Numbered from the stretch's first letter, positions 4,546-55,777 are shown. The stretch: 64,000 bases of DNA from an uncultured Gemmatimonadota bacterium (GCA_951812955.1 OX638340.1:1280001-1344000); one strand, 5' to 3'. Made by a program: numbers and translations. The notes: generated by a model not told the origin, from the sequence alone.

Positions 4546-4638
4546 GACCTGGATGCCCACCTCAGTTTGACCTGGATGCCCACCTCAGCTTGACCTGCAT
4601 GCCCATCTCAATCCTGCCTGCATACCCATCTCAGAACG
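4546..4638. repeat. Four degenerate tandem copies of a 23-bp unit (gacctggatgcccacctcagYtt) spanning the stop codon of the TonB receptor gene.
   Basis: Read directly: units at 4546, 4569, 4592 and 4616. The stop TGA (minus strand) at 4631-4633 lies in the last unit. Confidence 0.7.
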
Positions 4639-7600
4639 TATACCTTACCCCAATCTGGACCTGCCACCTGGATGAGAGGTTGGTAGTCTGGAACACGTCC
4701 TCACGGTCGATTTTCCCATCTTCGTTGGCGTCCCGGACCCGGAGGTCCAGGTCCGGCCTGCCCTGTTCGTCGTATCCGTCGAAATTGAACAGGCCTGCGG
4801 CGTCGAACAGCACGTAGCGGCTCTGACCCCAGGCGCCGTTGATCAGGTTGGCCAGGTTCAACACGTCCAGCGTCAATTCGAAGTGGTGGGTCCGAATCGA
4901 GGGCAGTTCCTGGATCAGGCGCAGGTCCAACCGGTTTCGCCACGGCGAGCGGGACGCGTTGCGTTTGACGATGGCGCCCCGGGCCGCGCGCAAAACGGGA
5001 TCGGAATCGACAAAAGCGTCGATCGCCCTCCACTCGTCGTCGGTTACCATTGCGCTGACGTCGCTCCTGCTCGCCGGGATGTAGGCGAGGTCGTTGCCCC
5101 TTATGCCGTCGCCGTTCACGTCGTCGGCGTACATGTAGCTGTAGGGATCTCCCGCGCTGCCTTCGTAAAAGAGGGAGAGCGTCGTGGCGAGTCCCCGTCC
5201 GAATTCGTATTTCCATGACCCGGTGGCCAGGACCCGGTGACGGACTTCGAAATCGGACGTTGCGGTCGTCTCGCCGTTGGGGTCGTCGGTCTCGTTGTAC
5301 TGCCAGTTGGAGATGGCGCGGCTGGACCGTCCGCTGTTGACGTCCTCGGCGTCCTGGAACACGTAGGCGACGCTTCCGAAGAGCCCGGGCAGAAAGGACG
5401 CGTTCCCTCTCTTGCGTAGGCGCAGTGTCAGGTTGAACTGGCGCCCCTTGTCCGTGTTCTCCAGGAGTATGACATTGGTGAAATCGCCGCTGACCGTCTT
5501 CCCAGCGTAGTCGGACCGGCCGTCCGGAGTCCTTCCCGTCGGGCGGCCGTTGTCGCCGATGTTGAGGTTGCGGAAACGGACCTCGTCGATGTTACGGGCA
5601 AGCAGGAGTTCCACGGTTCCGACCAGATCCAGGGGCAGTCTGCGGTCGAGGGCGAGGTTGGCGCGAAAAACCCGGGGCAGCCGAAATTCCGGGTCGATGA
5701 CGTTTACCTCCGAGGTCTCGGGCGCGTCGAGACGGCCATCCAGCGGAAGCGGTTGCGCGAAAGGATCCGCCACGAACGCAGGAACGTCCTGGTCCCGGAA
5801 GGATGCAAGATCGATGCGGGTGAAATCCACCCCCGTGTTGCTGTACGCGTTGGAGAGCCAAACGGCCGGCGGCAGCCCCGCGAAAACCCCGCCGCCGCCG
5901 CGGAACTGCGTCCCGCGGTCCCCTCCCGCGTCGAAGTTGAACCCGAAGCGCGGCGACCAGAGGATCCGGCCGCCCGGAGTCCGGTCCGTCCGATGTCCGG
6001 CGAACTGGCGGGCGAATCGGTCGTTGGACAGAGGTTTGTCCGGCAGGATCGGCACTTCGGCCCGCAATCCGAATTTCACGCTGAGCCGAGGACTGATCCG
6101 CCAATTGTCCTGCGCGTAGAATCCCATCTGCACGTAGTCCCACGCGGCGCGGGGCTGTTCGACGCCGGGCACCATAGATCGGCTAAGGAGGTAGCGGGTA
6201 GGCTCACCACGCTCAAAGGCCTCGATGCCGTCGAACTCGTAGGCGCCGTAGTAGTCCTGAATGAACAGGTTGTCGAAAGAAATGAACTCGTTGTGCGTGC
6301 CGATCGTTATGGTATGATCCGCCCTGAACAGGTGAAGGTCGTTGGTGAATTCGAAGGTGTCCTGGTTCAGCGCGTTGGCCTGGGAGAACCGCTCCACGCC
6401 AAGCCGGACCTCGCCGAGGAACGCTCCGCCTGCCTCTTCGAGGTCGATCTGTACCTGGGGGAAGGTGCCGGACAGCGGCGACCTGCTGTCCCGCACGCGG
6501 CTGTAGGACAACCGAGCTTCATTGGCCAGGCTGCCGGAGAAAGTGCTGTTGAGTTGCGCGACCGTGGACTGGGTGACGTTATCGCGTGTAAACTGGTTGC
6601 TGGTCAGTGTAAAGATTGTGCGACCCCGGCGCAATCCGTCGTCCAGGTCGCCGGTTACATAGTTGTGGCGCAGGGTGAGCCGGTGCCTGGAAGACAGGTT
6701 GACGTCAAGCCGCCCGAAGAATTTCTCATTACGCGTGCGCTGAGAAAAGGGATCGAATCCCCCGGCATCATAGCCGTAATTGTCGCGGGCGATGTCCACG
6801 ATTTGCTGAAGGGCAGCCGACCCGGCGCCGAAACGGATGGGCTGGCCTGAATCCGCGGGACCGACGCTCGAAGGACTTGCACGCCGCCGCAGTTCACCGT
6901 TGATGAAGAAGAAAACCCGGTTGGTGACCAACGGTCCACCAAGCCGAAAACCAAGCTGATAGTCGGCAAAATCTCCGAATTTGTCGCCTTCCAGGTCCCC
7001 CACCAGGGATTCGTTCCGGCCGAAATAGTACAGGGAGCCGCGGAACCGGTTCGTTCCACTGCGCGTTACCGCGTTGATGAGCCCGCCCGCGAATCCACCC
7101 GAACGGACGTCAAAGGGCGCCACCTGGACCTGAAACTCTTCGATGGCATCGAGGCTGATCAGCTGGGCATTCACCTGCCCTGTGGGCAGACCCTCGTTCG
7201 ACAGCCCGAAGGCATCGTTCAGCACGGCGCCGTCCACCTGGAAGTTGTTCATGCGGTTGTTCTTACCCGCGATACTTTGCCCGCCGGCTTTCGACGCCGC
7301 TTCAGGCGCCAGCCGGGTATAGTCCTGTATGCTCCGGGCAATGGATGGCAGCCGGGCGATTTCGTTGGCCGTGACGTGGGTCTCGGTTCCGATGTTCGAT
7401 GCGTTGAGCACCTCGTCCCTGTGGGCTGTGACGACGACTGCCTCGGTCTCGATGACGTCCTCGCGCAACCCGAAGTTCACACGCAGGTTCTGCCCCATCG
7501 ACAGGGTTACATCCCGGCGGACAGCGGTTTGATATCCGATATAACTGACTCGTATCTCGTACGGACCGCCGGTCCTGAGTCCCGCAATGTTGTACCGCCC

Positions 7601-7792
7601 GTCGGCACGGGAAAACACGCCTGAAGAGACTCCCGTGGGCTCATGCAGGGCGATCACGGTGGCGTCAGGGAGCGGCGCACCATTGTCATCCAGAATCCTG
7701 CCGTTGAGCGTCGCGGTTGTAATGCCCTGCGCGTTGACCAGGGTCGATGTGGGAAGGACCAGAATCAGAATAGTTCGGAGCAAGATACGCAT
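4631..7792 (-). CDS. TonB-dependent receptor with N-terminal carboxypeptidase-regulatory-like domain plus plug and 22-strand barrel.
   Basis: Signal peptide MRILLRTILILVLPTSTLVNAQG, CarbopepD_reg-like RILDDNGAPLPDATV..GRYNIAGLRTGGPYEIRVSYIGY, and C-terminal ..VRYTF terminal aromatic. 1053 aa. Confidence 0.85.
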   Translation of the reverse strand: MRILLRTILILVLPTSTLVNAQGITTATLNGRILDDNGAPLPDATVIALHEPTGVSSGVFSRADGRYNIAGLRTGGPYEIRVSYIGYQTAVRRDVTLSMGQNLRVNFGLREDVIETEAVVVTAHRDEVLNASNIGTETHVTANEIARLPSIARSIQDYTRLAPEAASKAGGQSIAGKNNRMNNFQVDGAVLNDAFGLSNEGLPTGQVNAQLISLDAIEEFQVQVAPFDVRSGGFAGGLINAVTRSGTNRFRGSLYYFGRNESLVGDLEGDKFGDFADYQLGFRLGGPLVTNRVFFFINGELRRRASPSSVGPADSGQPIRFGAGSAALQQIVDIARDNYGYDAGGFDPFSQRTRNEKFFGRLDVNLSSRHRLTLRHNYVTGDLDDGLRRGRTIFTLTSNQFTRDNVTQSTVAQLNSTFSGSLANEARLSYSRVRDSRSPLSGTFPQVQIDLEEAGGAFLGEVRLGVERFSQANALNQDTFEFTNDLHLFRADHTITIGTHNEFISFDNLFIQDYYGAYEFDGIEAFERGEPTRYLLSRSMVPGVEQPRAAWDYVQMGFYAQDNWRISPRLSVKFGLRAEVPILPDKPLSNDRFARQFAGHRTDRTPGGRILWSPRFGFNFDAGGDRGTQFRGGGGVFAGLPPAVWLSNAYSNTGVDFTRIDLASFRDQDVPAFVADPFAQPLPLDGRLDAPETSEVNVIDPEFRLPRVFRANLALDRRLPLDLVGTVELLLARNIDEVRFRNLNIGDNGRPTGRTPDGRSDYAGKTVSGDFTNVILLENTDKGRQFNLTLRLRKRGNASFLPGLFGSVAYVFQDAEDVNSGRSSRAISNWQYNETDDPNGETTATSDFEVRHRVLATGSWKYEFGRGLATTLSLFYEGSAGDPYSYMYADDVNGDGIRGNDLAYIPASRSDVSAMVTDDEWRAIDAFVDSDPVLRAARGAIVKRNASRSPWRNRLDLRLIQELPSIRTHHFELTLDVLNLANLINGAWGQSRYVLFDAAGLFNFDGYDEQGRPDLDLRVRDANEDGKIDREDVFQTTNLSSRWQVQIGVRYTF

Positions 7793-7915
7793 GGCTGGTT
7801 ATGTCCCGGATCGATAAATCGTTGCACAATATCACGAATGTCGAATATAATACCCCACAAGCCTGAAAACGACACGGAACTTCGATGCGCTTTCGTAAAA
7901 TGGCAAATCGGTGCC

Positions 7916-8023
7916 GGTCACACAGAGCCTGGCCGCCTGTCACACAGAACCTGGCCGCCGGTCACGCAGAGCCCGGCTTCATGTCATGTACAGCCGACCT
8001 CATGTCACGTATAGCCCGACCTC
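7916..8023. repeat. Five degenerate tandem copies of a ~22-bp unit (Rgtcacacagagcctggccgcc) in the divergent intergenic region between the TonB receptor and uxuA.
   Basis: Read directly: units start near 7916, 7938, 7960, 7981 and 8002. Confidence 0.65.
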
Positions 8024-8065: not shown

Positions 8066-9076
8066 ATGGCGTTGATGGAAATTGAACCCGGTCTCAAGAT
8101 CGCGGGTCAGATGTCTCCCGAACCGACGCGGGAAGACCTGGAGTTCGCCCAGCAGTTGGGCATAGAATACGTCTGTCTGTGGACGGACGGTGAACACGCG
8201 AACTACGACTATTTCATGAGCCGCAGGGAGATCTACGAGGAAGCAGGCATCAAGATCTACGGATTCGGCAACAGCGACGTGCACAACCAGGATGCCATTG
8301 TGCTCAACCTGCCGAACCGGGACGCGAAAGTGGAGCAGTACAAGAGATACATTCGCGACCTCGGCAGGGCGGGCATCCCCTATACGACGTACGCACACAT
8401 GGGCAACGGAATCTGGAGCACGGAGCGGGAGACCACCCGCGGCGGCGCCCCGGCCCGGGGTTTCGACCTGGCCAGCGCCGAGGAGGGGCACTGGGGCGGC
8501 CGGTTGTTCAGGATGCCGCTGACCCACGGACGAGTGTACAGCGAGGACGAAATATGGGACAATTTCGCCCATTTCGTCGGTGAAGTCGCGCCCGTCGCCG
8601 AAGAGGCCGGCGTCCGGATCGGCATTCATCCGGACGATCCTCCCCAGCCGGAACTCGGCGGCATTCCGCGGTGTATTTTCAGCAGTTTCGACGGCTATTA
8701 CCGGGCCATGGAGATCGCCGACAGCCCGAACGTGGGGCTCTGCTTCTGTATCGGCTGCTGGCTAGAGGGCGGATCGCTGATGGGCAGGGGCGTGGAAGAT
8801 TCGCTGCGACATTTCGGCGAACAGGGCAAGGTCTTCAAGGTCCACTACCGCAACGTGGACCAGCCGCTGCCTCATTTCGTGGAGACCTTCATCGATAACG
8901 GATATTTCGACATGTACCAGGCCGCGCGGGTCCTGGAAGAAACCGGCTTCTACGGGGTCATGATTCCTGATCACATTCCCGAGATGGCGGGAGACGGCCG
9001 GATCGGCTACGCCTACTCGATCGCGTACATGAAGGCGCACGCGGACCGGGCGAGAGCGGAATGCGCCGCCGCGTAA
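8066..9076 (+). CDS. uxuA: D-mannonate dehydratase UxuA.
   Basis: Conserved VAEEAGVRIGIHPDDPP motif and IPDHIP/PDHG region match the UxuA xylose-isomerase-like TIM-barrel family. Confidence 0.8.
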   Translation: MALMEIEPGLKIAGQMSPEPTREDLEFAQQLGIEYVCLWTDGEHANYDYFMSRREIYEEAGIKIYGFGNSDVHNQDAIVLNLPNRDAKVEQYKRYIRDLGRAGIPYTTYAHMGNGIWSTERETTRGGAPARGFDLASAEEGHWGGRLFRMPLTHGRVYSEDEIWDNFAHFVGEVAPVAEEAGVRIGIHPDDPPQPELGGIPRCIFSSFDGYYRAMEIADSPNVGLCFCIGCWLEGGSLMGRGVEDSLRHFGEQGKVFKVHYRNVDQPLPHFVETFIDNGYFDMYQAARVLEETGFYGVMIPDHIPEMAGDGRIGYAYSIAYMKAHADRARAECAAA

Positions 9077-9141
9077 GTGTATAGCGGGCCGGGCGAGAGC
9101 AAAGTGCGCCGCCGCGTAAGCGTAAACGACTGTTCCTGACC

Positions 9142-11944: not shown

Positions 11945-12931
11945 TTGGACCCCTTGCGAATAGCCGTAATCGGTGTCGGACGGCTCGGTGAAGCCCATGC
12001 CCGGGTGCTGGCGGGAATGCCCGGCGTGAAGCTTTCCGGCGTGTACGACATACGGGAAGATCGCGCGGAGGAGGTCGCGCGTCGCTACGGCACGAATGCG
12101 CTCGACAGCCTGTCGCGTGCCACGGAGGAATCGGACGCTGTCACCGTGGTCGTACCCACCACCGCGCACTACGAGGTGGCGTCATTCGTCCTGTCCCGGG
12201 GCATGCATACCTTCGTAGAGAAGCCGATCACCGCCACCGTGGAGGAAGCCGACCGGCTGATCGAACTGGCGGACACCGGGGACCTGGTGCTTCAGGTCGG
12301 ACACATCGAACGGTTCAACGGCGCCTTCCTCGCCCTCGAGGGCATGGACATATCGCCAGGTTTCATCGAAGCGCACCGGCTGGCCTCCTTCGACCCCAGG
12401 GGAACGGACGTGTCCGTCGTCCACGACCTGATGATCCACGATATCGATCTCATCCTGCGTCTCGTCAAATCGGACCTGGAGTCGGTGGACGCCACGGGTG
12501 TCGCCGTGATTTCCAACCAGGTAGACATCGCCAACGCCCGCATGCGGTTCGCCGACGGATGCGTGGCCAACGTCACGGCCAGCCGCATCTCGCTGAAAAA
12601 GATGCGCAAAATGCGTATCTTCCTGCGCGATCATTATGTTTCGATGGACTTTCTGGCGGGCGAAAGTGAGATATACCGATTGTTAGACGATCCCGGTCAG
12701 GCCGGGAAGCGGGGTTTGAAAATACCCGTCCAGACCGGTGATGGACGAACACGGCATATCACGCGGCAGAAGACTTCGAAGAAGCGGAACGAGCCGTTGA
12801 AATCGGAACTCGCCTCCTTCGTCGCGGCGGTGCGTGGCGAGGCGCCGCCTCCGGTGACCGGCTTCGACGGCCGGGAAGCCCTGCGCGTTTCGCTGGCGGT
12901 AGTCGATCAGATCGACATCAGCAGCCGGTAA
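11945..12931 (+). CDS. Gfo/Idh/MocA family NAD(P)-dependent oxidoreductase.
   Basis: Rossmann motif RIAVIGVGRLGEAHARV right after a TTG start, and a C-terminal GFO_IDH_MocA_C-like domain. The long upstream ORF extension is low-complexity and judged non-coding. Confidence 0.65.
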   Translation: MDPLRIAVIGVGRLGEAHARVLAGMPGVKLSGVYDIREDRAEEVARRYGTNALDSLSRATEESDAVTVVVPTTAHYEVASFVLSRGMHTFVEKPITATVEEADRLIELADTGDLVLQVGHIERFNGAFLALEGMDISPGFIEAHRLASFDPRGTDVSVVHDLMIHDIDLILRLVKSDLESVDATGVAVISNQVDIANARMRFADGCVANVTASRISLKKMRKMRIFLRDHYVSMDFLAGESEIYRLLDDPGQAGKRGLKIPVQTGDGRTRHITRQKTSKKRNEPLKSELASFVAAVRGEAPPPVTGFDGREALRVSLAVVDQIDISSR

Positions 12932-13030
12932 GGCAGGCATCCTCGTACGTTGCGGCGACGAGGTCAGGACTGGCCGGCAGGCATCCTCGTTCATCTCTGC
13001 AACGAGATCCGGTCCCGCCGGCAGACCGGA
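12926..13030. repeat. Two-plus tandem ~45-bp units (ccggYaggcatcctcgt...), each with an internal hairpin, overlapping the stop of the upstream gene.
   Basis: Read directly: ggcaggcatcctcgtacgttgcggcgacgagg / ggcaggcatcctcgttcatctctgcaacgag, then partial ccggcagaccgg. Confidence 0.6.
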
Positions 13031-13653: not shown

Positions 13654-14079
13654 CTACGGATTCTTATCCACGCCGCTCAGGCTGTTCAGGGTCCGTTCAT
13701 GCATCGTGCAACGGATGGTATCGGAGTCCTGGCCGGGCGGGCCGGGCAGTCGGGACGACGCCGATCCGGGTGGATCCTCCGAACCGTCGGTGGCCCCGGC
13801 GTCCTGCTGCTTGACGGATCGCCTTTGTACCGTGACACCCGCGTTCCCGTGTAGGAGGCTGAGCAGAGCGATGAGCGCTACGAGGAGGACGACGGGCCAC
13901 CAGGGTACGCTGAACAGCATGCGGACCGAATCCGATCCGGCGTGGAACAGCAGTCCGTACATGAAGATGGGACCGAGGATAATCAACAAGGCAACCCCCA
14001 CGACGCATATCACTTGCGACCAGGCCGGGTTGCGCTGAAGAAACCTCGATAGTTGCGATATGTCGTGCTTTCTCTTCAT
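13654..14079 (-). CDS. Hypothetical small membrane protein (two predicted TM helices).
   Basis: ORF with hydrophobic segments (VICVVGVALLIILGPIFMYGLLF, WWPVVLLVALIALLSLL). No recognisable family. Confidence 0.3.
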   Translation of the reverse strand: MKRKHDISQLSRFLQRNPAWSQVICVVGVALLIILGPIFMYGLLFHAGSDSVRMLFSVPWWPVVLLVALIALLSLLHGNAGVTVQRRSVKQQDAGATDGSEDPPGSASSRLPGPPGQDSDTIRCTMHERTLNSLSGVDKNP

Positions 14080-14324
14080 GAGTCGTTCCGTTCGGCGAAT
14101 GGGTTCATTGTCATCGGTTACCCACCTCCCACCAGGGTGGATGCAGGTTAGTTTACGAAGAAAACAATCGGAATCGGCGAAGGTCCGCAGGGGGCCGGTA
14201 CGCACGCCGGTACGTGCGCCGGAACCTCTTGACAATCCCGATCCTCGGACCTACTGTTACAGGTCAAAACTGACACGAACCGCATGAGCAGAGTCGGCCA
14301 ACACGCCAACGTAATGAGGTATCC

Positions 14325-16112: not shown

Positions 16113-17657
16113 ATGTCGGAACACCACGGAAGGGAAGTCTGGCAAAGCCGCCTGGGCCTGATCATGGCCATGGCGGGCAACGCCATCGGCCTGGGGAATT
16201 TCCTGCGGTTCCCTGTCCAGGCGGCCGCAAATGGCGGCGGGGCCTTCATGATTCCCTATTTCGTCGCGTTCCTGGTCGTGGGCATCCCCATGATGTGGGT
16301 GGAATGGAGCGTGGGCCGGTTCGGAGGCAAGCATGGCCACGGCACCACGCCGGGTATCCTGTACCGCCTGTGGAAACACCCGGCGGCAAAGTACATAGGC
16401 GTCCTCGGCATCGCTGCGCCGGTGGCCTTCGCGCTCTACTATTCCTACGTACAGTCGTGGACCCTGGCCTACAGCTTCTTCTCGCTGACCGGCGAGTACT
16501 TCGGCATCAGCACCCAGGCGGAGATGGGCGCATTCCTGAGCAGCTTCCAGGGCGTCTCCGAAAGTGCCTACTTCAGCAGCGTCGCCACCGCCTACGTCTT
16601 CTTCCTTATCAATCTCGGTATCGTATTCTGGGTGCTGACCCGTGGCGTGGTTCGGGGCATCGAAACCCTGGCCAAGTTTGCCATGCCCATGCTGCTGATC
16701 TTCGCGATCGTGCTGGTGGCGCGGGTGCTTACCCTGGGCACGCCCGATCCGTCCATGCCGGACCAAAGCGTCATGGCCGGTTTCGCCTGGATCTGGAATC
16801 CGGATCTCAGCCGACTTTCGGAAGGCAGCGTATGGCTCGCGGCAGCGGGTCAGATATTCTTCTCCCTGGGCATCGGCATCGGCAGCATGCAGTGCTACGC
16901 GAGTTATGTCCGCGCCCGGCAGGACGTCGCCCTGACCGGATTGACCACCTCCATGAGCAACGGCTTCGCCGAGGTGGTACTGGGCAGTTCCATCGCCATT
17001 CCCGTAGCCGTGGCCTTCTTCGGCGTCACCGCCACCGAGGCCATCGCGACCGGCGGATCCTTCGACCTGGGCTTTCAGTCCATGCCCCTGATCTTCCAGC
17101 AACTGCCCCTGGGCCAGTTCATCGGGACGCTGTGGTTCGGTCTGCTCTTTTTCGCCGGCATCACATCGACGGTAGCGCTGACGCAACCGCCCATGGCCTT
17201 CCTCCAGGACGAAATGGGCTGGCCGCGTAAGAAGGCGGCCATGGTCGTAGTCTCCTTCCTTTTCATCTTCGGAAACTTCATCGTCTTTAACATCGAGCAT
17301 GGCGTCATCGACGAGCTTGATTTCTGGATTGGGACCGTGGGACTGGTCGTATTTTCCTTCCTCGAGATCATTATATTCGCCTGGATTTTCGGCATGGACA
17401 AGGCATGGGAGGAGATCAACGAAGGTTCGGCAATCAAGATTCCACGGATATTCTACTACATGATCAAGTACGTCACGCCCGTTTCGCTTGCGATCCTGCT
17501 CGTCGTTTGGACCTACCAGGCGGGATTCGATTTGCTCCTGCTGCGCAACGCCAACCCGGAGGACATGCCCTTCCTGCTGATGACGCGCGGCATCATCGTG
17601 GGATTGATCCTGGTCGGCGTATTGCTGGTCAGACGGGTCTCTAAAAACTGGGGCTGA
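16113..17657 (+). CDS. Sodium-dependent transporter, neurotransmitter:sodium symporter (NSS/SNF) family.
   Basis: Hallmark N-terminal GLGNFLRFP motif and 11-12 TM helices. Confidence 0.85.
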   Translation: MSEHHGREVWQSRLGLIMAMAGNAIGLGNFLRFPVQAAANGGGAFMIPYFVAFLVVGIPMMWVEWSVGRFGGKHGHGTTPGILYRLWKHPAAKYIGVLGIAAPVAFALYYSYVQSWTLAYSFFSLTGEYFGISTQAEMGAFLSSFQGVSESAYFSSVATAYVFFLINLGIVFWVLTRGVVRGIETLAKFAMPMLLIFAIVLVARVLTLGTPDPSMPDQSVMAGFAWIWNPDLSRLSEGSVWLAAAGQIFFSLGIGIGSMQCYASYVRARQDVALTGLTTSMSNGFAEVVLGSSIAIPVAVAFFGVTATEAIATGGSFDLGFQSMPLIFQQLPLGQFIGTLWFGLLFFAGITSTVALTQPPMAFLQDEMGWPRKKAAMVVVSFLFIFGNFIVFNIEHGVIDELDFWIGTVGLVVFSFLEIIIFAWIFGMDKAWEEINEGSAIKIPRIFYYMIKYVTPVSLAILLVVWTYQAGFDLLLLRNANPEDMPFLLMTRGIIVGLILVGVLLVRRVSKNWG

Positions 17658-20268: not shown

Positions 20269-20352
20269 GCGGGCTCGGCGCATTGCCCATACCGAACTGC
20301 AATGCCACGGACGGACCGATCTGAATCACCGCGTTCGGCCATCTCACGCTTT

Positions 20353-20397
20353 GCCATCATTCGTTCTGCCATTATTCATTCTGCCATTACTCGTCTT
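20353..20397. repeat. Three tandem 15-bp units (tgccatYaYtcRttc) in the intergenic region.
   Basis: Read directly. Confidence 0.5.
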
Positions 20398-36850: not shown

Positions 36851-36851
36851 C

Positions 36852-36880
36852 AAGATAGTACCGTTTCGGGGTGAGATCAA
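36852..36880 (-). promoter_or_regulatory. Candidate promoter for the riboswitch/btuB transcript (TTGATC-17-TATCTT).
   Basis: Weak -35/-10 match with correct spacing; TSS would fall at the aptamer 5' end. Confidence 0.25.
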
Positions 36881-40920: not shown

Positions 40921-40994
40921 GCCCCAGTAGCTCAGTTGGACAGAGCATCGGACTTCTAATCCGAGGGTCGCAGGTTCGAATCCTGCCTGGGGTA
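40921..40994 (+). tRNA. tRNA-Arg (anticodon TCT).
   Basis: Manually folded cloverleaf: acceptor GCCCCAG/CTGGGGT, D-arm GCTC-AGTTGGACA-GAGC, anticodon stem TCGGA/TCCGA with loop CTTCTAA, T-arm GCAGG-TTCGAAT-CCTGC, discriminator A. G1:U72 wobble noted. Confidence 0.8.
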
Positions 40995-41054
40995 TGGGAA
41001 CCGGGCTTTCAGCGTAGTCCGCGCAGTGGTTGCGCCGGTTCCCGGTTCCCCCGT

Positions 41055-41128
41055 GCGTCCGTAGCTCAGCTGGATAGAGCAACTGACTTCGGATCAGTAG
41101 GTCGGGGGTTCGAATCCCTCCGGGCGTA
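41055..41128 (+). tRNA. tRNA-Arg (anticodon TCG).
   Basis: Cloverleaf: acceptor GCGTCCG/CGGGCGT, D-arm GCTC-AGCTGGATA-GAGC, anticodon stem ACTGA/TCAGT with loop CTTCGGA, T-arm GGGGG-TTCGAAT-CCCTC. G1:U72 wobble again. Confidence 0.75.
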
Positions 41129-41194
41129 TACATTTCATCGACATCCCCATCTGTTCATCGTTTCCAAGGCATCGATTGCCGGGAAGGAACGACC

Positions 41195-42280
41195 ATGGAC
41201 CGTATCAGGATCGGCGTGATCGGCTGCGGTGCGATCGCCCAGATTCAGCATCTGCCCCATATCGCCGAGCTCCGGGACCGGTACGAGCTGGCTGGGCTTT
41301 GCGACGCGTCCGCGAAGCTCGTGGACTTCATCGGCGGGATGTACCACGTACCCCAACGCGCCCGGGTCACCCGGTACGAGGAACTCCTCGGACTCGATCT
41401 CGACACCGTGCTGCTGTGTTTCGCCGACCCCAAGACCGAAGTGGCCGTCGCCGCGCTGAATGCGGGAAAACACGTCTTCATCGAGAAGCCCATGTGCTTT
41501 ACGGTCAAGGATGCGGACCGGATCATCGGTGCCGCCGAGGCTTCGGGCAAAACCCTGATGGTGGGGTACATGAAGCAGCACGACCCGGGATACCAGTTCG
41601 CGCGGAACGAGGTCCTCGCCATGTCGGATATCCGCTTCATCCAGGCCAACCACCTCCACTGCGGCAACGACCGGCACCTCCAGGAATTTAAGCTGTATGC
41701 CTTTGACGACGTTCCGCGCGACCTGATGGAGGACACGGCGCGGAGACGGGAACAGACCGTCCGGGATGCCATAGGCGACGCCCCGGAAGCAGCCCGCCGC
41801 ATCTTCTTCTCCCTTTCCGGAAGCATGATCCACGACATCAGCAGTTTGCGCGGCATGTTCGGGCCGCCGGAACGCGTGATCAGCGCGGAAGTATGGCGGG
41901 ACGGAACCAGCGTAACGACCGTGCTGGCCTACGAGAACGACGCGCGCTGCTCGGCGACCTGGACGAGCCTGCCAGGCCTGCATGATTTTCGGGAGACTCT
42001 GGAAGTCTTTGGCGCGGAGCGCCGCGTGAGCATCCGGTTTCCCACGGGATTCGACCGGGGACTGCCGACTCCGGTGACGGTGCAGGGCATGGACGGCGAA
42101 CAGCCCTGGAAGAAGGAACTCGTCGTAAACAAGCAGAATGCCTTCAAACTGGAAATGATCCACTTTCATGATTGCGTCGTGAACGGAAAACAGCCCATCA
42201 CCGACGGATACGGCGCCCGGCAGGACCACGCCCTGTGCCGGGACATCGTCAACGCGTACCTGGGGAAAAACACTACATGA
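41195..42280 (+). CDS. Gfo/Idh/MocA family oxidoreductase (inositol 2-dehydrogenase-like).
   Basis: Rossmann IRIGVIGCGAIAQIQHLP, EKP motif (HVFIEKPM), and C-terminal domain. Confidence 0.8.
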   Translation: MDRIRIGVIGCGAIAQIQHLPHIAELRDRYELAGLCDASAKLVDFIGGMYHVPQRARVTRYEELLGLDLDTVLLCFADPKTEVAVAALNAGKHVFIEKPMCFTVKDADRIIGAAEASGKTLMVGYMKQHDPGYQFARNEVLAMSDIRFIQANHLHCGNDRHLQEFKLYAFDDVPRDLMEDTARRREQTVRDAIGDAPEAARRIFFSLSGSMIHDISSLRGMFGPPERVISAEVWRDGTSVTTVLAYENDARCSATWTSLPGLHDFRETLEVFGAERRVSIRFPTGFDRGLPTPVTVQGMDGEQPWKKELVVNKQNAFKLEMIHFHDCVVNGKQPITDGYGARQDHALCRDIVNAYLGKNTT

Positions 42281-43209
42281 AGATCGTCTTCTGTACCCTG
42301 ACACTCAGTCCGTACCGTTCACCCGAAGCCGCGGAGCGAGGCTATCCCCTGGCCGAGGAGCGCAAACCCGTGTGGGACTGGCTCGTCCGTCACGGATTCG
42401 ACGGGATCGACCTGGGTGAGACCTGGTTCAACTTCTACGACGCCCCGGACGAGGTCCTGGTCGAACTCGGCGAGGAGGCGCGCGAGCATAGTCTCGAAAT
42501 CGGCGGACTGACCGTTCTGCGCAAGATCATCACCTGGCCGGCCCCGGAAGAGGTCCGCGCGACGAACCGGGGACTGCTGCGAAGGGCGGTAAAAGCGGCC
42601 CAACTCGCCGGCGCGCCGCTCGTCAACATGTCCATTTCGCCGCAACCCTGGGAAGTTGGCGTGCGCGAACAGGATCTCCGGGGACAGTCCGACCCGGTGG
42701 GCAGCAGCCTGCGGGCGCGGGACGAAGACTACGAGGAAGCCGCCGGGGTGTTGAAAGCGCTGGCCAGGGAGGCCGAACCGGAAGGCACCGAACTGACGCT
42801 GGAACTGCACCAGAACAGCATCGTGGACACCCCGGAGGGCATGCTGCGGCTCATCGATCTCGTCGGCCATCCCCTGATCAAGGCGAATCCGGACCTCGGC
42901 AATTTCTACTTCGCCTACGCGACACCCGACGGCGGCTGGGACGACGTGTGCCGGATGCTGGCGCCGCACACCAACTTCTGGCACGTCAAGAACATACAGC
43001 GGATCTACTTCCAGGAAGAAGACCGCGCACAGCACATCAACGCGCCACTCGGCGAGGGCATGATCGATTACCGGCGGGCGCTCCGGATCCTGCGGGACGG
43101 CGGATTCGACGGATATATCAGTATCGAGCTGGCCACGGGCGCCGATCCCTTCAACGCGATCCTGTCCGGGAAGCGATACCTGGACGAAATGATGCAGGAC
43201 GGGATCTGA
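42277..43209 (+). CDS. Sugar phosphate isomerase/epimerase (xylose isomerase-like TIM barrel) family protein.
   Basis: TIM-barrel AP-endonuclease-2-like segments (LELHQNSIVDTPE, ISIELATG). ATGA overlap with the upstream gene. Confidence 0.7.
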   Translation: MKIVFCTLTLSPYRSPEAAERGYPLAEERKPVWDWLVRHGFDGIDLGETWFNFYDAPDEVLVELGEEAREHSLEIGGLTVLRKIITWPAPEEVRATNRGLLRRAVKAAQLAGAPLVNMSISPQPWEVGVREQDLRGQSDPVGSSLRARDEDYEEAAGVLKALAREAEPEGTELTLELHQNSIVDTPEGMLRLIDLVGHPLIKANPDLGNFYFAYATPDGGWDDVCRMLAPHTNFWHVKNIQRIYFQEEDRAQHINAPLGEGMIDYRRALRILRDGGFDGYISIELATGADPFNAILSGKRYLDEMMQDGI

Positions 43210-43212: not shown

Positions 43213-43271
43213 GCCGGCGATTTCCGGCCTGATTCCGGCATGACTATCGGCCTGATTCCGGCCTGATTCCC
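43213..43271. repeat. 4-5 tandem copies of an 11-13-bp unit (cggcctgattccgg).
   Basis: Read directly, just after the stop codon of the preceding gene. Confidence 0.55.
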
Positions 43272-44600: not shown

Positions 44601-45773
44601 ATGACTCCGCACATCGGAATCGGCATTATCGGAATGGGCTGGATGGGCATGGTCCATGGCCGCGCCTACCGCCAGGTCCGGCAGCGATTCCACGAAAGCG
44701 AACTCCTTCCCGATCTGGTCATATGCGCCGACGATGTGGCAAACCGATGCGGGCAGGCCATGGACATGCTGGGATTCACGCGTACTACAACGGACTGGCG
44801 CAAGGTCATCGACGACCCCGAGGTGTCGGTTGTCAACATCACCGCGCCCAATTTACTTCACCTGGAAATGGTCCGCGCCGCCGCCGCCGCGGGCAAGCAT
44901 ATCTTCTGCGAGAAGCCCGTGGGCCGTTCCCCCGGCGAAACGGACGAAATCGCCCGGGCGGCCGCCGATGCCGGCGTGCTGACCTGGGTCGGATACAACT
45001 ACCGGTGGGCGCCGCTCGTGCAGCATACGCGCAGTCTCGTCGCAGACGGCAAGCTGGGGGACATCACCCATTACCGCGGCCGGTTCTTCGCGGGGTACGC
45101 GAGCCATCCGGACGGTGTGCTGTCGTGGCGATTTCAACGGGAACATGCGGGTAGCGGAGCCCTGGGCGACCTCATGTCCCACGTTGCCGACATGGCCCAC
45201 ATGCTCGCGGGACCCATCAGACGCGTAGTCGGCCAGCAGGCGCTGATCATCGAAGACCGGCCCGTCGCCCCAGCCGGCGAAGGCACCCATTTTTCCGTAG
45301 GGACCGGAGGCAATCGGGAACCGGTGACCAACGAAGACTACGCCGGGGCGCTGGTGGAATTCGAGAACGGCGCGCGGGGAACCTTCGAAGTCTGCCGCGT
45401 GATCCAGGGAACGAAATGCCAGATGGCCTTCGAGATCCACGGCACAAAAGGCGCGGTCCGGTGGGATTTCGAACGAATGAACGAACTTCAACTCTATTCC
45501 GTCGATGGCCTGCACGACGGTTTTGTAACGCTTCAGAGCGGTCCGGCCTATCCCGGGCATGCGCACTTCAACCCCGGGCCGGCCGTGGGACTGGGATACG
45601 ACGACCTAAAGGCGATCGAGACCTTCCACTTCCTGCAGTCCATCGCGGCGGGCAGACAGGGTGAACCGGGTTTCAGCGAAGCGCTGGCCGTCGCGCGGGT
45701 GCTTTCCGCGATCGAACGCTCCTGGTCGTCCGACCGGTGGGAAACGATCGACAGTTCCTGCCTTGATCGGTAG
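44601..45773 (+). CDS. Gfo/Idh/MocA family oxidoreductase.
   Basis: Rossmann [19 protein letters not shown] and EKP motif (HIFCEKPV). Confidence 0.8.
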
Positions 45774-45862
45774 ATTCGGCCGTTGATCGATAGAGACAGG
45801 CCTATGATCGACAGTTCCGACCTTGATCGGCAGAACCGGCCGTTGATCGATCGAGACAGGCC
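45746..45862. repeat. Two tandem ~60-bp units; the first copy includes the last 28 nt and stop codon of the Gfo/Idh/MocA gene.
   Basis: gatcgacagttcctgccttgatcggtagattcggccgttgatcgatagagacaggcc / gatcgacagttccgaccttgatcggcagaaccggccgttgatcgatcgagacaggcc, read directly. ~88% identical. Confidence 0.75.
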
Positions 45863-50846: not shown

Positions 50847-51746
50847 ATGCCGCGCATCGATGCCCATGGTCACGTATTCGCAAAAGTTTCACGCGAATTT
50901 CCGCGGGAAACCGGCGGAAACACGCCGGCGGATCGGGAAGAATCGGTCGAGAAGCTGATGACCTACATGGCCGCAAGCGATATCGGCCAGGCCATGCTCG
51001 TTCAGATGGGTGGCGCGACGGCGGCACATCACGCCTACGTGCTCCACTGCCTCAGGACCTACCCCGACCGCTTCCTCGGCATCGGGCTCATCCCGGAAGA
51101 CCTCGTCGCATCACCAGAGGAGCACATGGACCGCCTGACGGACGGAACGGGCATCGTGGGCTTCCGGCTCGGACTGGTCGGCGGACCCAGGGATCCCTTC
51201 GATGACGTGGACGTACGCACCTTCCTGACCTACCGGATCTGGAAACACGCGGCGGAGAAGGACCTCGTCCTCTGGCTGTACGTACGCGCCGCGGACGCCC
51301 ACCTGATCGCCTATCTCGTCGACGCCTTTCCCCAGGTCCGTGTCGTACTCAACCACCTGGGCATCTGTCCCGGCGAAGGCAAGGGGCGCCACGACCAGTG
51401 GGGCCGGCCGCAGATCGACATTGCGTCATACAACCCGGCGTTTCACACCACCCACCGCCTGAGTACCTACGAGAATGTGACCATGAAACTGTCCGGGCAC
51501 TACGCCTTCAGCAAGAAACCGTACCCCTATGAGGACCTGGCGGGATGGCACAGGGCGGCGCTCAATTCCTTCGGGGCTGACCGGCTCATGTGGGCGACGG
51601 ACTTTCCCTGGATCTACGAGGAACCGGGATACGACAAACTGGTGGACCTCGTGGAAAAACTCACGCCCGATATCATGCCGCACGAATACGAGGCGGTCAT
51701 GGGCGGAACGGCCAGGCGGTTTCTTCGTTTTCCGGACCTGAAATAA
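50847..51746 (+). CDS. Amidohydrolase-2 (ACMSD/TIM-barrel metal-dependent hydrolase) family protein.
   Basis: N-terminal IDAHGHV metal motif, ..VVLNHLG.., and C-terminal ..LMWATDFP.. typical of Amidohydro_2. Confidence 0.7.
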   Translation: MPRIDAHGHVFAKVSREFPRETGGNTPADREESVEKLMTYMAASDIGQAMLVQMGGATAAHHAYVLHCLRTYPDRFLGIGLIPEDLVASPEEHMDRLTDGTGIVGFRLGLVGGPRDPFDDVDVRTFLTYRIWKHAAEKDLVLWLYVRAADAHLIAYLVDAFPQVRVVLNHLGICPGEGKGRHDQWGRPQIDIASYNPAFHTTHRLSTYENVTMKLSGHYAFSKKPYPYEDLAGWHRAALNSFGADRLMWATDFPWIYEEPGYDKLVDLVEKLTPDIMPHEYEAVMGGTARRFLRFPDLK

Positions 51747-51816
51747 TGCATCCCGCATCTGAATGAAGTGATGCATTTCGCATCCGTAAGAGTCTACGCC
51801 CCGATCGGAGACAGAT

Positions 51817-52902
51817 ATGAGCGAAGACCAGCATGGTTTACTGACCAGCGAGCACATCCAGGGCCTGGTTCAACGGATGGGAGAAGCCGCCGTCGATTTT
51901 ACGGCCGTCCTGGCCACGGACCAGCGGACGAAAGCGCTCTTCCCCTTCGAAGACGACGACGCACGCACCTTCTGGGACTACGTGCCCCTGGCGAGAAAAG
52001 GCCTTCCGCTTGGGGAAATGGAACGGGGACAACGGCGCCGGGCACTGCAACTCGTGGCCACGGGGCTGAGTGGTACGGGTTATGCCACTACGACGACCAT
52101 CATGGGCCTGGAAGCGACGCTGGATGCCCGGGAGGGGTGGTCATCGGGCAACTGGCGGGATCCTTCCGACTACTACGTGTCCATATTCGGCACGCCATCG
52201 GACCGTGACCCCTGGGGATGGAAATTCGAGGGACACCACGTTTCCATCAACTATACGATCGCCGGGGGACGGATCGTCGCGCCTACGCCCTTCTTCTTCG
52301 GGGCAAATCCTGCGTCGGCGGCCCTCAACGGGGTAGGATACCTCCGGCCCCTGGGCAACGTGGAAGACCTGGCGCGGGAACTGGTACGCGCCTTGGACGA
52401 GGACCAACGGCACAACGCGCTGATCGCGTCCGTTCCGCCCGGGGACATCGTCACGGTGAATCAGAGGTATATACAGGAGAACAGGGAGAAGCCGGACCGG
52501 CTGGCCCGAACGGAGGTGCCTTACGATTCGGTGCGGTACACGGAGACGCCCCGTGGCCTTTCCGGGGCGGGCATGAATGACGGACAGCGGGAGATACTGG
52601 AGGCCCTCATAGGCGAGTACATTCACCGCATGCCCGACGCCGTTGCCGAGATCGAGTCCGATCTGCTGCGTAGAAACGGCGTGGGCGACGTCCACCTGGC
52701 ATGGGCAGGCGGCCTGGAATCCCGGCAACCCCATTACTACCGCCTGCAGGGCGGACGATTCCTGGTGGAATACGACAACGTCCAGAACGACGCCAACCAC
52801 GTGCACACGGTCTGGCGCAACCCGACGAACGACTTCGGCGCGGATCTGCTCACCCACCATTACCACACCGCGCACAACCACGGCGTGGAACACCGGCACT
52901 GA
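51817..52902 (+). CDS. DUF3500-like protein with His-rich C-terminus.
   Basis: Contains a WKFEGHHVS segment, which I recall as a DUF3500 motif. C-terminal HHYHTAHNHGVEHRH suggests metal binding. Confidence 0.5.
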   Translation: MSEDQHGLLTSEHIQGLVQRMGEAAVDFTAVLATDQRTKALFPFEDDDARTFWDYVPLARKGLPLGEMERGQRRRALQLVATGLSGTGYATTTTIMGLEATLDAREGWSSGNWRDPSDYYVSIFGTPSDRDPWGWKFEGHHVSINYTIAGGRIVAPTPFFFGANPASAALNGVGYLRPLGNVEDLARELVRALDEDQRHNALIASVPPGDIVTVNQRYIQENREKPDRLARTEVPYDSVRYTETPRGLSGAGMNDGQREILEALIGEYIHRMPDAVAEIESDLLRRNGVGDVHLAWAGGLESRQPHYYRLQGGRFLVEYDNVQNDANHVHTVWRNPTNDFGADLLTHHYHTAHNHGVEHRH

Positions 52903-53011
52903 GCGGCCGGCCGCGGCCGGGATGGTATGCTCAGAGATAGGGCGTGCTGCGATCCGGACCGTTAGCGCCGCGCTTCGGAACGACGGCGCCGCGCTTCGGA
53001 ACGACTATGAA

Positions 53012-53959
53012 TCAGTAACCCTTGCGTTTGTCGATGACGCTCACCAGCGGAAGCCCATCCCGGTAACGCCGCAGATTCTCGCAGAACAGGGCCACGCACC
53101 GTCCGTCCCGATTGGGAGATCCTCCGGCCGTATGGGGCGTGATTACCACGTTGTCCATCTTCCACAGCGGGTGGTCTTCGGGTAAAGGTTCCTGTGGTAC
53201 CACGTCCAGACCTGCGCCGCCGATCTGGTTCCCTTCGAGCGCATCCAGCAGAGCCGCCTCGTCGACTATCCTGCCCCTGGTGACGTTGATCAACAACGCG
53301 TGATGCCGCATGCGGGCGAAGGCCGTCCGATCGAACAGCCCCTCGGTTTCCGCCGTCAACGGCGCGCAGATGGCCACGACATCGGACTGTTCCAGGAGCG
53401 CGTGGAACCGATCCATGCCCCAGCAGGCTTCAACTTCGGACGGCACTTCGACGTCCTCCGGATCCACGGCGACGACCCGCATGCCGAAAGCTGCCGCCCG
53501 CCTTGCCAGTTCGCGTCCGGTGCCGCCCAGCCCCACGATCCCCATCGTCCGGTCGACCAGCTCCCACGAGGCATCGCGAATGGGCCAACGGATATTATCC
53601 CAGCCCTGGTTTCGAAGCGCGGTGTGTATACCGCGGGTTAATGCAAGCAACAGCGCCATCCCGTGGTCGGCCAGATGTACACCCACCGTGCCCTTCGCAC
53701 TACACAGTACTACGTCGCTCTCCACCAGTTCGGGATAGAGCAGTCCGTCCACCCCGGCACCCCAGCTCTGGATCCACGCGAGCTTATCCCGACGCGCGAA
53801 AAGGGCACGCGTAATCTCGCCGCAGACTACTTCGATGCCGGGCATGACTTCCGCGGCTTCTTCTTCCGAATCCGTGCGTACCACCTGTACATTCTCGTCA
53901 ACCCGGCGGATTTCATCGACGAGGGGTTCGATCAGATTCATCCTGAGCAAAACGTTCAT
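53012..53959 (-). CDS. D-isomer-specific 2-hydroxyacid dehydrogenase family protein (NAD-binding).
   Basis: GxGxxG (GIVGLGGTGRELARRA), catalytic R/E/H context (LINVTRG..D, HTAG). Confidence 0.85.
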   Translation of the reverse strand: MNVLLRMNLIEPLVDEIRRVDENVQVVRTDSEEEAAEVMPGIEVVCGEITRALFARRDKLAWIQSWGAGVDGLLYPELVESDVVLCSAKGTVGVHLADHGMALLLALTRGIHTALRNQGWDNIRWPIRDASWELVDRTMGIVGLGGTGRELARRAAAFGMRVVAVDPEDVEVPSEVEACWGMDRFHALLEQSDVVAICAPLTAETEGLFDRTAFARMRHHALLINVTRGRIVDEAALLDALEGNQIGGAGLDVVPQEPLPEDHPLWKMDNVVITPHTAGGSPNRDGRCVALFCENLRRYRDGLPLVSVIDKRKGY

Positions 53960-53983: not shown

Positions 53984-54025
53984 CTAAGGCGCGTTTCTTG
54001 AGGTCTCAGGTGCGTTTCTTGAGAT
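53984..54025. repeat. Two tandem 21-bp units (cYMaggYgcgtttcttgagRt); the second encodes the last 6 codons and stop of the ankyrin gene.
   Basis: Read directly. Confidence 0.6.
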
Positions 54026-55124
54026 AAGCAGCGCCGAGCCGGGCGATTTCTAAGGCGGTTTTTCCGCTTTTGTTCAGCACGGTCCCGTCCGCGCCCTCGG
54101 CGAGCAGGACCTCCGCGGCTTTGGCATGCCCTTCGTACGTGGCCCTGTGTAGGGGTGTGCGGCCCTTTCGATCCTGGGCATCCAGGTCCGCTCCGGCCTG
54201 TGTGAGTAGTTTCACGGAATCCGACCGGCCACTTTCCGCCGCCAGGTGCAAGGGCGTTCGGTGCGCCTTGTTCCGGGCGTCCACCTCGGCGCCATGGTCC
54301 AGCAGCAGCTTAGCGCACTCAACTGAACCTGCCCGGCACGCCCAGTGCAGCGGGGTCATCCCGTAAACGCCAATTTCCCTGGCCATCGCCGGATTTGTGG
54401 ACAAAAGTTCCAGGACCCGGGTTACGTCATTCAGTCCCGCCGCCGCATAGGCGTCGTATACCGCGCCGTCCTCGATCAACAAGCGGGCGACTTCCCGCTT
54501 ACCTTCGTTCCGGCGTGCGTCGTCTCCACCCCACCTGCCAGGCGCCACAGCCTCGTGCAGGGCCGTCTCACCTCGCTCCCCGTTGCCCGTGATAGGCAGT
54601 TCGTGATGCACGGAGGCACCATTGTCGATCAGGAGTCCGGCGACTTCAGGAAACCCGCCCCAGGCGGCCCAGTACATGAGGGAAAGGTTCGCGGGCCAGC
54701 CCGTGTGGGGCTTTGCGATGGACACCGGGGTGGCGTCCGCCGCACCCGCGGCGAAAACGGCTTCAAGGGTGTCCACTGAACCCGCCCAGGCCGCTTCGTG
54801 CAGGACGTTGTAGGAGGTCGTGTCGATGCTTAAAACAATTCCGCGATCGAGGAGAAACGATACCGCCTCTCCACAGCCGCGCATGCCAACGGCTACGGTA
54901 AGCAGGCTGGAACCGATGCGATCGAGAACGGCCGGATGTTTCGCGTGGATTTCCGCCATCATCGGCAGGTCCGGCTGTCCATCCCAACGATCCGATGCCT
55001 GACCGATAGCCGCTTCGATGAAGCGCCCTTCCGCTTGCGTGACGTCCGGCAACTGTTCTTCACGAAGAAACCAGTTTTGTCGGAACAACCGGATTGCGGG
55101 ACTGTCGAGCACCGCGCCTCCCAT
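54006..55124 (-). CDS. Ankyrin-repeat protein (at least 6 ANK repeats).
   Basis: Repeated TPLH..A...G.......LL..GA..(D/N) modules (TPLHWACRAGSVECAKLLLDHGAEVDARNKAHRTPLHLAAESGRSDSVKLLTQAGADLDAQDRKGRTPLHRA). Confidence 0.8.
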   Translation of the reverse strand: MGGAVLDSPAIRLFRQNWFLREEQLPDVTQAEGRFIEAAIGQASDRWDGQPDLPMMAEIHAKHPAVLDRIGSSLLTVAVGMRGCGEAVSFLLDRGIVLSIDTTSYNVLHEAAWAGSVDTLEAVFAAGAADATPVSIAKPHTGWPANLSLMYWAAWGGFPEVAGLLIDNGASVHHELPITGNGERGETALHEAVAPGRWGGDDARRNEGKREVARLLIEDGAVYDAYAAAGLNDVTRVLELLSTNPAMAREIGVYGMTPLHWACRAGSVECAKLLLDHGAEVDARNKAHRTPLHLAAESGRSDSVKLLTQAGADLDAQDRKGRTPLHRATYEGHAKAAEVLLAEGADGTVLNKSGKTALEIARLGAAYLKKRT

Positions 55125-55141
55125 TGGCTCGAGACCAGGCG

Positions 55142-55777
55142 CTATTCGAGCAGATCGGCGCCGCCGTCATCCATTTTCTCGGGCTGGCGCCAGTACCGGT
55201 ACTGCGGGGTCCATTCCGCTTCGCCCAGGCCCGCGAGCCCCAGCAGGTTCCAGTGCGAGCAGTACAGGTCGCCGGGACCGAATACGCAGCTGTTCTTCCG
55301 GAGTACCTGGTCGTCCTTACGTTCGTAGACCACGGCGCCGGGCATGTTCTCCACGCCTTCCATCACCGTCTGCTCCACGATGTAGTCGCCGCCTTCGTGG
55401 GAAGCGAGGCGAAAGCGCCAGTTTCTCGAATTTGCGAAATCACGCTGCAAGGCTGGGGGATCGCCGGAAAGGAGCACGACGGACATGGCGTCCTCGAGAT
55501 GGGCAAGCATGCCGTTGAATCCGTCCGCCCAGAGCGTACAGTATCGGCAGCCCTGTCCCATGTTGTGGATGGCCAGCAGGCGATCGCGGCCGGCGAACAG
55601 GTCGAGCAGGGAGACTTCCCCGGTCAGGGTGGCGAACCGGTAATCGGGAACCGGCCGCGGATCGTTGTCTCGCCGCAACGCATTCAACTTCGCGGTGAGC
55701 TCGTATATCTGCCGTTCGAGGGCGACGATGTCCTGGTCAGCCTGGTCAGCCTGGTCAGCCTGGTCAGACATGCTCAT
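55142..55777 (-). CDS. DUF899 thioredoxin-like domain protein with CxxC.
   Basis: CRYC motif and DUF899-like length and layout. N-terminal (DQA)4 repeat. Confidence 0.55.
   Translation of the reverse strand: MSMSDQADQADQADQDIVALERQIYELTAKLNALRRDNDPRPVPDYRFATLTGEVSLLDLFAGRDRLLAIHNMGQGCRYCTLWADGFNGMLAHLEDAMSVVLLSGDPPALQRDFANSRNWRFRLASHEGGDYIVEQTVMEGVENMPGAVVYERKDDQVLRKNSCVFGPGDLYCSHWNLLGLAGLGEAEWTPQYRYWRQPEKMDDGGADLLE
55732..55767. repeat. Four in-frame copies of a 9-bp unit (cctggtcag on plus; encodes DQA repeats) in the 5' end of the DUF899 gene.
   Basis: Read directly; copy number is a multiple of 3 nt and so phase-neutral. Confidence 0.7.

Follow-up and report, generated by a model that had tools for sequence, protein, structure and literature searches.

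The DNA studied here is a stretch of 64,000 nucleotides (nt) from an uncultured Gemmatimonadota bacterium (GCA_951812955.1, OX638340.1:1280001-1344000), hereafter the window, in which short tandem direct repeats crowd the gene boundaries. Ten window proteins have identical counterparts in public data, and the proteins that cluster with these at 90% identity are assigned to Gemmatimonadota. The Pfam content of the window is an ordinary chromosomal mix that includes genes for a TonB-type outer-membrane barrel together with uxuA-like, xerC/D-like, lnt, hisB and clpB genes; it also holds an inositol-catabolism cluster, a gene for an ankyrin-repeat protein and two tRNA-Arg genes. Between these genes, and in a few cases inside them, lie arrays of directly adjacent repeat units. 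Comparison with other bacteria and with relatives confirms that the abundance of these arrays is a real lineage trait of the Gemmatimonadota clade to which the window belongs, about 8-16 times what is found in other bacteria.

Orthologous DNA of relatives was found by means of exact window proteins and covers graded distances. The closest contig, L081, is about 97% identical to the window in nucleotide sequence and has a short-read-style name (NODE_19); L083 (94-97%) is a 2.25-Mb contig with a long-read-style name (ctg49669l). Two further groups, L091-L095 and L096-L101, are 90-96% identical and include the 3.91-Mb contig ctg21612c (L091), the others coming from several samples. L084 and L088 (about 80-88%) are fully syntenic sister species, L102 and L103 share 89% and 85% protein identity with the window, and L085-L087, L089 and L090 share 65-78%. 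L102 (LXNJ01002123.1) originates from a metagenome of the sponge Petrosia ficiformis (PMC5099237). Because of this origin and the ankyrin-repeat gene in the window, a sponge-associated clade is the likely source of the window.

Number and density of the arrays

Tandem Repeats Finder (TRF) was run over the whole window, and an array was counted as strong when its score was at least 75 and its period at least 10 nt. Fourteen arrays are observed at a score of at least 50 and nine at a score of at least 75, while 100 dinucleotide-preserving shuffles of the window give means of only 0.32 and 0.01, respectively. An earlier note made from this sequence had listed 11 arrays, and all of them exist: nine are recovered by TRF with similar periods and at most about 10 nt away from where they had been placed, and the other two (29449-29517 and 53984-54025), which TRF misses because they are too degenerate, are seen by direct alignment with 26/35 and 18/21 matches. 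TRF and direct alignment add six more, at 9041-9124, 24145-24193, 26598-26633, 51740-51790, 52965-53005 and 57739-57773. According to TRF the units of 11-60 nt are arranged head to tail in 2-5 copies, with up to 8.2 copies in L083, and every array is at most 120 nt long, below the typical length of a sequencing read. Against the identity of 80-95% that had been given for the copies, 29449-29517 falls below this range. The copies at 55732-55767 are 100% identical.

The same TRF settings were applied to the window, to the relatives and to two sets of comparators. The first consists of 80 clpB-centred loci (1.37 Mb) from diverse bacteria whose ClpB is 55-62% identical, among the matches listed; the second consists of 77 further distant loci from a metagenome scan with a peptidase protein, which gave L102-L181. 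The window carries 1.41 strong arrays per 10 kb, whereas the first set carries 0.10, the L108-L181 subset of the second (74 loci, 572 kb) 0.33, and all 157 loci together (1.98 Mb) 0.166. At this pooled rate 1.07 strong arrays would be expected in 64 kb, and the Poisson probability of at least nine is 1.9e-6. The earlier note had called the density unusual and had named an equivalent density in random high-GC genomes as grounds for dropping the idea; the comparators of the first set with a GC content of 0.55-0.68 show 0.09 strong arrays per 10 kb, and the density is unusual against shuffled and natural sequence alike.

The relatives show how far the trait extends. Per 10 kb, five relatives from the clade (105 kb; 85-97% protein identity) carry 1.23 strong arrays, or 2.18 when every strength is counted, close to the values of the window; at 65-78% protein identity (61 kb) the two figures fall to 0 and 0.16. 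It is thus a shallow clade that shows the trait, which is dense at 85-97% identity and absent at 65-78%. The kind of array differs as well: 73% of the comparator arrays have a period that is a multiple of three, which indicates that they are mostly coding, against about 50% in the clade, and the enrichment of the clade over the comparators is 6- to 7-fold for periods that are not multiples of three and about 2-fold for those that are. A lineage-specific propensity for slipped-strand or template-switch duplication, as the earlier note had put it, is supported in that the excess is clade-wide and copy number varies among its members.

Birth, growth and turnover of the arrays

Spacer-by-spacer alignments of the window with L081, L083, L084, L091-L095, L096-L101 and L103 reveal how the arrays differ between lineages. 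Copy number or unit mix differs at 10 of the 15 assessable arrays when the window is compared with L081, L083, L091 or L096 (93-97% nucleotide identity), so that the copy-number polymorphism earlier suggested as a check is indeed found; five of the roughly eight indel events that separate the window from L081 fall within arrays.

Several units that are duplicated in the window are single in a relative. The 43-nt x2 duplication at 9041-9124 (plus strand) holds the last 33 coding nt and the TAA stop codon of gene 8066-9076; it is present in L081, and the unit is a single copy in L096-L101, whose sequence there measures 73 instead of 116 nt, exactly 43 fewer. The 44-nt x2.1 duplication at 12932-13024 (plus strand), which begins 1 nt past the stop of gene 11945-12931 and forms a small hairpin in each unit, is likewise single in the L096 lineage (97 against 141 nt), flanked there by GCAG/GGCAG microhomology. 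The 11-nt x4.4 array at 43222-43270 (plus strand), 13 nt past the stop of gene 42277-43209, is a single copy in L091-L095, which are 34 nt shorter at this site. At 24747-24864 (plus strand) a 40-nt unit that starts from the TAA stop of the gene 24249-24749 (166 amino acids, aa) is present once in L084, about twice in L083 and about three times in the window. Of three polarised duplications inspected, two are bordered by microhomology of 4-6 nt, namely the GCAG/GGCAG pair at 12932 and GTCCGG at 24747.

At other loci units have been gained in one relative or are missing from another. L083 has one unit more than the window at two sites: the 23-nt x2.1 array at 24145-24193 (plus strand), 14 nt past the stop of the NHL-repeat gene 23274-24131, has 3.1 copies in L083 and none in L084, and the degenerate 35-nt x2 array at 29449-29517 (plus strand), 24 nt past the clpB stop, corresponds to a 36-nt x2.2-3 array in L083 (TRF score 116), with the whole segment missing from L084. 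L081 has one more 15-nt unit in the array of 2.5-3 copies at 20352-20397 (plus strand), in the spacer between the genes for an amidase and a flavin adenine dinucleotide (FAD)-oxidoreductase, where L084 has unrelated sequence; it also has one more 12-nt unit in the in-frame x2.4 array at 14194-14222 (minus strand; TRF score 44), close to the start of the hypothetical gene 13654-14235 (minus strand), which gives a protein of 197 instead of 193 aa. The 22-nt array of about five copies at 7913-8023, with two unit subtypes, lies in the divergent spacer that separates the outer-membrane barrel gene 4631-7792 (minus strand) from the uxuA-like gene 8066-9076 (plus strand); it is equal in length and different in unit mix in L081, and one unit shorter in the L096 lineage (252 against 273 nt).

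The most variable spacer precedes the gene of an SSF transporter, where an 18-nt x3.2 array at 30814-30871 (plus strand) abuts the ATG at 30872. The unit is present in 8.2 copies in L083 and is single in L084 and L088, in which a 6-nt motif (TACCCA or CCCGTA) has been expanded a few bases upstream of it; different motifs are thus expanded within one spacer, the 18-nt unit in the window and L083 as opposed to TACCCA. A metagenome scan for the conserved junction of array and start codon, CTGAAGCKTTATGTCCCCCTA, gave no match.

Some arrays are hierarchical, with steps from 20 to 60 nt at 45746 and from 23 to 46 nt at 4546, next to the two subtypes at 7913. The 60-nt x2 array at 45746-45862 (plus strand) is made of about six GATC-rich 20-nt subunits, is rich in GATC-containing palindromes (TGATCGATCGA), and takes in the TAG stop of gene 44601-45773 with the 25 coding nt before it; it has been rebuilt in L091-L095 (209 against 191 nt), where the C-terminus of the protein is altered (388 against 390 aa). 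The 23-nt x3.8 array at 4546-4634, with a 46-nt higher-order structure, extends over the stop codon (4631-4633) with which the outer-membrane barrel gene ends and sits exactly at a synteny breakpoint with the L096 lineage (window 4630, L096 6589). Past the barrel gene the window continues with an FAA-hydrolase gene and L096 with RND efflux genes.

The remaining arrays lie towards the end of the window. A degenerate 25-nt x2 array at 51740-51790 (plus strand; 18/25 matches) overlaps the stop of gene 50847-51746, and its orthologue in L091 is found by TRF (17157-17209, score 92). A perfect 21-nt x2 array at 52965-53005, in the convergent spacer between 51817-52902 (plus strand) and 53012-53959 (minus strand), also has two copies in L091, diverged and with a 5-nt indel. 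The 21-nt x2 array at 53984-54025 (minus strand) repeats the end of the ankyrin-repeat gene 54006-55124 (minus strand), namely its final five codons with the stop, and L091 has two copies here too. Two of these arrays are in frame: a perfect 9-nt x4 array at 55732-55767 (minus strand) gives the DUF899 protein 55142-55777 (minus strand) an N-terminal (DQA)4, with two copies of the unit in L091 against four in the window, and a 9-nt x3.9 array at 57739-57773 (minus strand) lies within gene 56978-57856 (minus strand).

Conversely, L084, L088, L091, L096 and L102 have arrays of their own where the window is single-copy. These include a 16-nt x5.9 array before a DHDPS gene, a 21-nt x2.9-6.2 array upstream of clpB, a 23-nt x2.9 array after hisB and a 20-nt x2.1 array over the 3' end of an ADH gene. 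Others are in frame and alter protein length: a 15-nt x4.3 array within clpB of L088 (9362-9425; 880 against 865 aa), an 18-nt x6 array in the FAD-oxidoreductase homologue of L084 (1111-1218; 482 against 452 aa) and an 18-nt x3.5 array in a hypothetical protein of L096 (15585-15697; 223 against 193 aa).

As read from these alignments, a stretch of 10-60 nt that is single in one lineage is shown to have been tandemly duplicated in another, after which units have been gained and lost, and the same spacers have been struck more than once independently. Judged by such comparisons, the arrays are young.

Placement at gene boundaries

Of the 17 arrays, 15 fall mainly within non-genic DNA, which accounts for 12.5% of the window (binomial P = 3e-12). 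An array is carried by 14 of the 33 spacers of at least 60 nt, and about 12% of all non-genic bases belong to an array. The periods of the coding arrays are 9, 9 and 12 nt, while those of the intergenic arrays (11, 15, 18, 20/60, 21, 21, 22, 23, 23, 25, 35, 40, 43 and 44 nt) have no bias towards multiples of three.

That several arrays re-copy the 3' end of a gene, as had been observed before, is evident at 9041-9124, 45746-45862 and 53984-54025, among others. The upstream stop codon is contained in 6-7 arrays of the window, and other arrays stand in divergent or convergent spacers. Clade-wide, overlap with a stop codon is seen in about ten arrays and overlap with a start codon in none. In the co-directional spacers of the window, 10 of 12 arrays are nearer to the upstream stop than to the downstream start, and one and the same stop codon was struck by two independent duplications, of 40 nt in the window (24747-24864) and of 33 nt in L103. 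Such observations speak for a process specific to the 3' ends of transcripts or genes, for instance replication-transcription conflict or template switching at terminators or stops, which would create the duplications and which the earlier note had offered as one explanation. However, by our tally over the whole clade 13 arrays are nearer to the stop and 7 nearer to the start, a split that is not significant by our own sign test. The array at 7913-8023 occupies a divergent spacer without any 3' end, 30814-30871 and most arrays of L084 and L088 stand against start codons, and still others are in frame within genes; the arrays have neither terminator-like folding nor C-rich skew. A 3'-end process is thus needless, and we consider it very improbable.

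Geometry and selection alone predict survivors that span stop codons. A duplication across the stop codon does not disturb the reading frame, most duplications within a gene disrupt it, and one across the ribosome-binding site or start adds a decoy. Where units of 20-60 nt match the free spacer in length, overlap with the stop is expected. We infer that selection would explain the excess at stop codons without a mechanism specific to 3' ends.

Sequence nature of the arrays

Each unit, when compared with the window by blastn-short, matches its own array only, in agreement with the earlier view that every locus has a different unit and that the arrays are not one family. A dispersed repeat family, such as repetitive extragenic palindromic (REP) sequences, BOX elements, miniature inverted-repeat transposable elements (MITEs) or elements resembling mycobacterial interspersed repetitive units (MIRUs), is therefore rejected, since outside its own array no unit recurs in the window. 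An artefact of assembly or consensus might be suspected, because the DNA belongs to a metagenome-assembled genome and repeats are known to mislead assemblers. Nevertheless the arrays are shorter than reads, and they recur with lineage-specific differences in independent assemblies of different samples, obtained with different technologies as judged by short-read-style and long-read-style contig names. For this reason assembly artefact is rejected; that either assembly error or a dispersed family accounts for them is extremely improbable.

Other candidate classes were discarded as well. The transcribed strands of 14 arrays fold with z-scores that range from -3.1 to +1.5, the median being near 0; only 45746 and 43222 fall below -2, and 45746 alone folds in a clearly non-random way (z = -3.1). 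These values reject structured RNA or terminator hairpins as a general property. From array to array the sense strand shows no consistent GC skew, the overall value being near zero, and a C-rich strand skew of the kind seen at rut sites is accordingly rejected. The units adjoin each other directly without unique spacers and do not form a CRISPR array.

A cis-regulatory role was also considered. Under this explanation the arrays would be selected elements whose copy number tunes expression through iterated binding sites, duplicated promoters or operators, or spacing. Some variable number tandem repeats (VNTRs) of Mycobacterium tuberculosis sit in cis-regulatory regions, and the copy number of a promoter VNTR is reported to affect lpdA expression (PMC12817950). 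In our data, arrays occur in promoter-bearing spacers (7913, and upstream of clpB in L084 and L088), and the units at 43222-43270 and 45746-45862, both within the inositol-catabolism cluster, have the 9-mer TTCCGGCCT in common. One TRF hit, 26598-26633 (plus strand; 17 x2.1), consists of two tandem palindromes of the form TGCCA-N4-5-TGGCA. About 85 nt downstream of the pair stands a perfect sigma54-type -24/-12 element, TGGCAC-N5-TTGCA (TGGCACacgttTTGCA), at 26715-26730, before clpB (26828-29425). Palindromes and element are kept together in L083 and L084, and the palindromes are also found in L103. Because of this conservation among relatives, 26598-26633 is set apart from the variable arrays; it looks like a pair of putative enhancer-binding-protein sites with a sigma54 promoter, and its sequence suggests that clpB in this clade may depend on an enhancer-binding protein and sigma54.

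Apart from this site, no array is conserved between species: the corresponding spacers of L084, L088 and L096 have a single copy, none, or unrelated units, and for the same reason arrays of iterons or operators were rejected. Many arrays are simply re-copied coding 3' ends, and their units are unrelated to each other. On balance a regulatory function is an improbable explanation for the arrays as a whole.

Origin and significance

We propose that the arrays are bacterial minisatellites of the VNTR type, produced by recurrent slippage or microhomology duplication and filtered by selection, and we hold this to be very probably correct. The first duplication would arise by replication slippage or template switching between short direct repeats, and later changes in copy number would follow from slipped-strand mispairing. 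Selection would then retain duplications in non-coding spacers, across stop codons, or in genes when the unit is a multiple of three; in a duplication that spans a stop, the first copy would keep the frame and the stop, leaving the second as mere extra spacer.

Certain observations weigh against this proposal or limit its reach. At least two strong arrays are present in 5 of the 66 comparator loci of at least 15 kb, so some genomes reach a similar local density, and the clade stands at the upper extreme of a range without being unique. The genome of the window was sampled over 64 kb only. The asymmetry between stop and start codons would have to come from selection, as supposed above. Finally, six contigs of the L096 lineage, from different samples, are identical at the array spacers, which argues that the arrays are not hypermutable on short time scales; change is visible at 3-6% divergence and not within a clone.

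The closest known systems are the bacterial VNTR or minisatellite loci used in multiple-locus VNTR analysis (MLVA), whose locus-specific units measure about 10-60 nt; such loci lie mainly between genes or in frame, contain imperfect copies and vary in copy number between strains. Familiar examples are the ETR, QUB and VNTR loci of M. tuberculosis, the locus-specific VNTRs of this species being the nearest analogy, and those of Burkholderia and Xanthomonas, and they are attributed to slipped-strand mispairing. Of the features of such loci, the window has head-to-tail units, copy number that varies between lineages, and a locus-specific unit with single-copy ancestral versions in relatives; a slippage origin is indicated indirectly by whole-unit gains and losses, the hierarchical structure and the microhomology. 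The difference lies in the density, far over that of the sampled comparators, and in the shortness of the arrays (2-8 copies) and their fast turnover between sister species.

The resemblance to other repeats is more partial. MIRUs are tandem units between co-directional genes that often overlap the upstream stop codon; of the window arrays, 6-7 overlap a stop and none a start, and others stand in divergent or convergent spacers. MIRUs, however, are one dispersed family, whereas here each locus has its own unit drawn from local single-copy sequence. Contingency loci built on simple sequence repeats, which are phase-variable, also change copy number by slippage, and (TACCCA)n and (CCCGTA)n in L084 and L088 as well as the in-frame 9- and 12-nt arrays recall them, but most units here are 11-60 nt long and are not placed to switch frame or promoter spacing, with no on/off logic evident. 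REP sequences, bacterial interspersed mosaic elements (BIMEs) and BOX elements share the intergenic position at gene boundaries; unlike them, the window arrays are not dispersed, do not form one family and are not generally palindromic or structured. A limited literature search found no paper on such tandem repeats in Gemmatimonadota or sponge symbionts. The arrays are a quantitatively striking and mechanistically ordinary genome feature, and they represent no new type of genetic element.

An excess this large throughout a clade suggests a changed slippage rate or a changed strength of selection in a host-associated bacterium. It may stem from a raised rate of duplication, through a change in repair or exonuclease functions, or from weaker purging in a host-associated population. 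A more specific version supposes a heritable change in replication or repair, such as loss of a single-strand exonuclease, loss of anti-slippage mismatch repair or gain of a low-fidelity polymerase, which would cause about tenfold more tandem duplication of 10-60 nt, possibly biased towards gene ends. We regard this version as rather unlikely; if true, it would make the clade a natural 'minisatellite mutator' bacterium.

In practical terms, a marker that can tell strains apart occurs about every 5-7 kb in this uncultured sponge symbiont, so that strains could be followed from host to host and from sample to sample. The arrays also enlarge and reshape the spacers between genes and the ends of proteins: protein length varies between lineages through two in-frame arrays and through one stop codon that lies inside an array.

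Neighbouring genes

A cobalamin riboswitch (Rfam RF00174, 94.8 bits) at 36670-36859 (minus strand) lies upstream of the TonB-dependent receptor gene 34465-36393 (minus strand) and is kept in L084; together they form a typical btuB-type arrangement. Between the FAD-oxidoreductase gene and an amidohydrolase gene, L081 (15725-17182) and L088 (1151-2608) have a cbiA-like gene for cobyrinic acid a,c-diamide synthase, which is represented by two open reading frames in L083 (750-2207) and is missing from the window (site 21780-21985), a pattern that looks like decay or loss inside one species-level group.

Gene fragments in some relatives also hint at decay. In some of the short-read relatives genes are split, with the OEP outer-membrane factor in four pieces (L097 3923-6560) and iolD in two (L094 8210-10140); these could be pseudogenes that result from relaxed selection, or assembly errors.

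Sponge symbionts typically have ankyrin-repeat proteins. The one encoded at 54006-55124 (minus strand) has 372 aa in the window and 240 aa in L091, owing to an indel of about 275 nt (54727-55001).

Beside the tRNA-Arg pair, at the equivalent of window positions 40921-41129, the L091 lineage carries additional genes over about 5 kb (1615-6628; DUF4268, a helix-turn-helix regulator and Exo_endo_phos), which may be a small island inserted next to the tRNA genes. This segment carries a 28-nt x3.8 array of its own that overlaps a stop codon.

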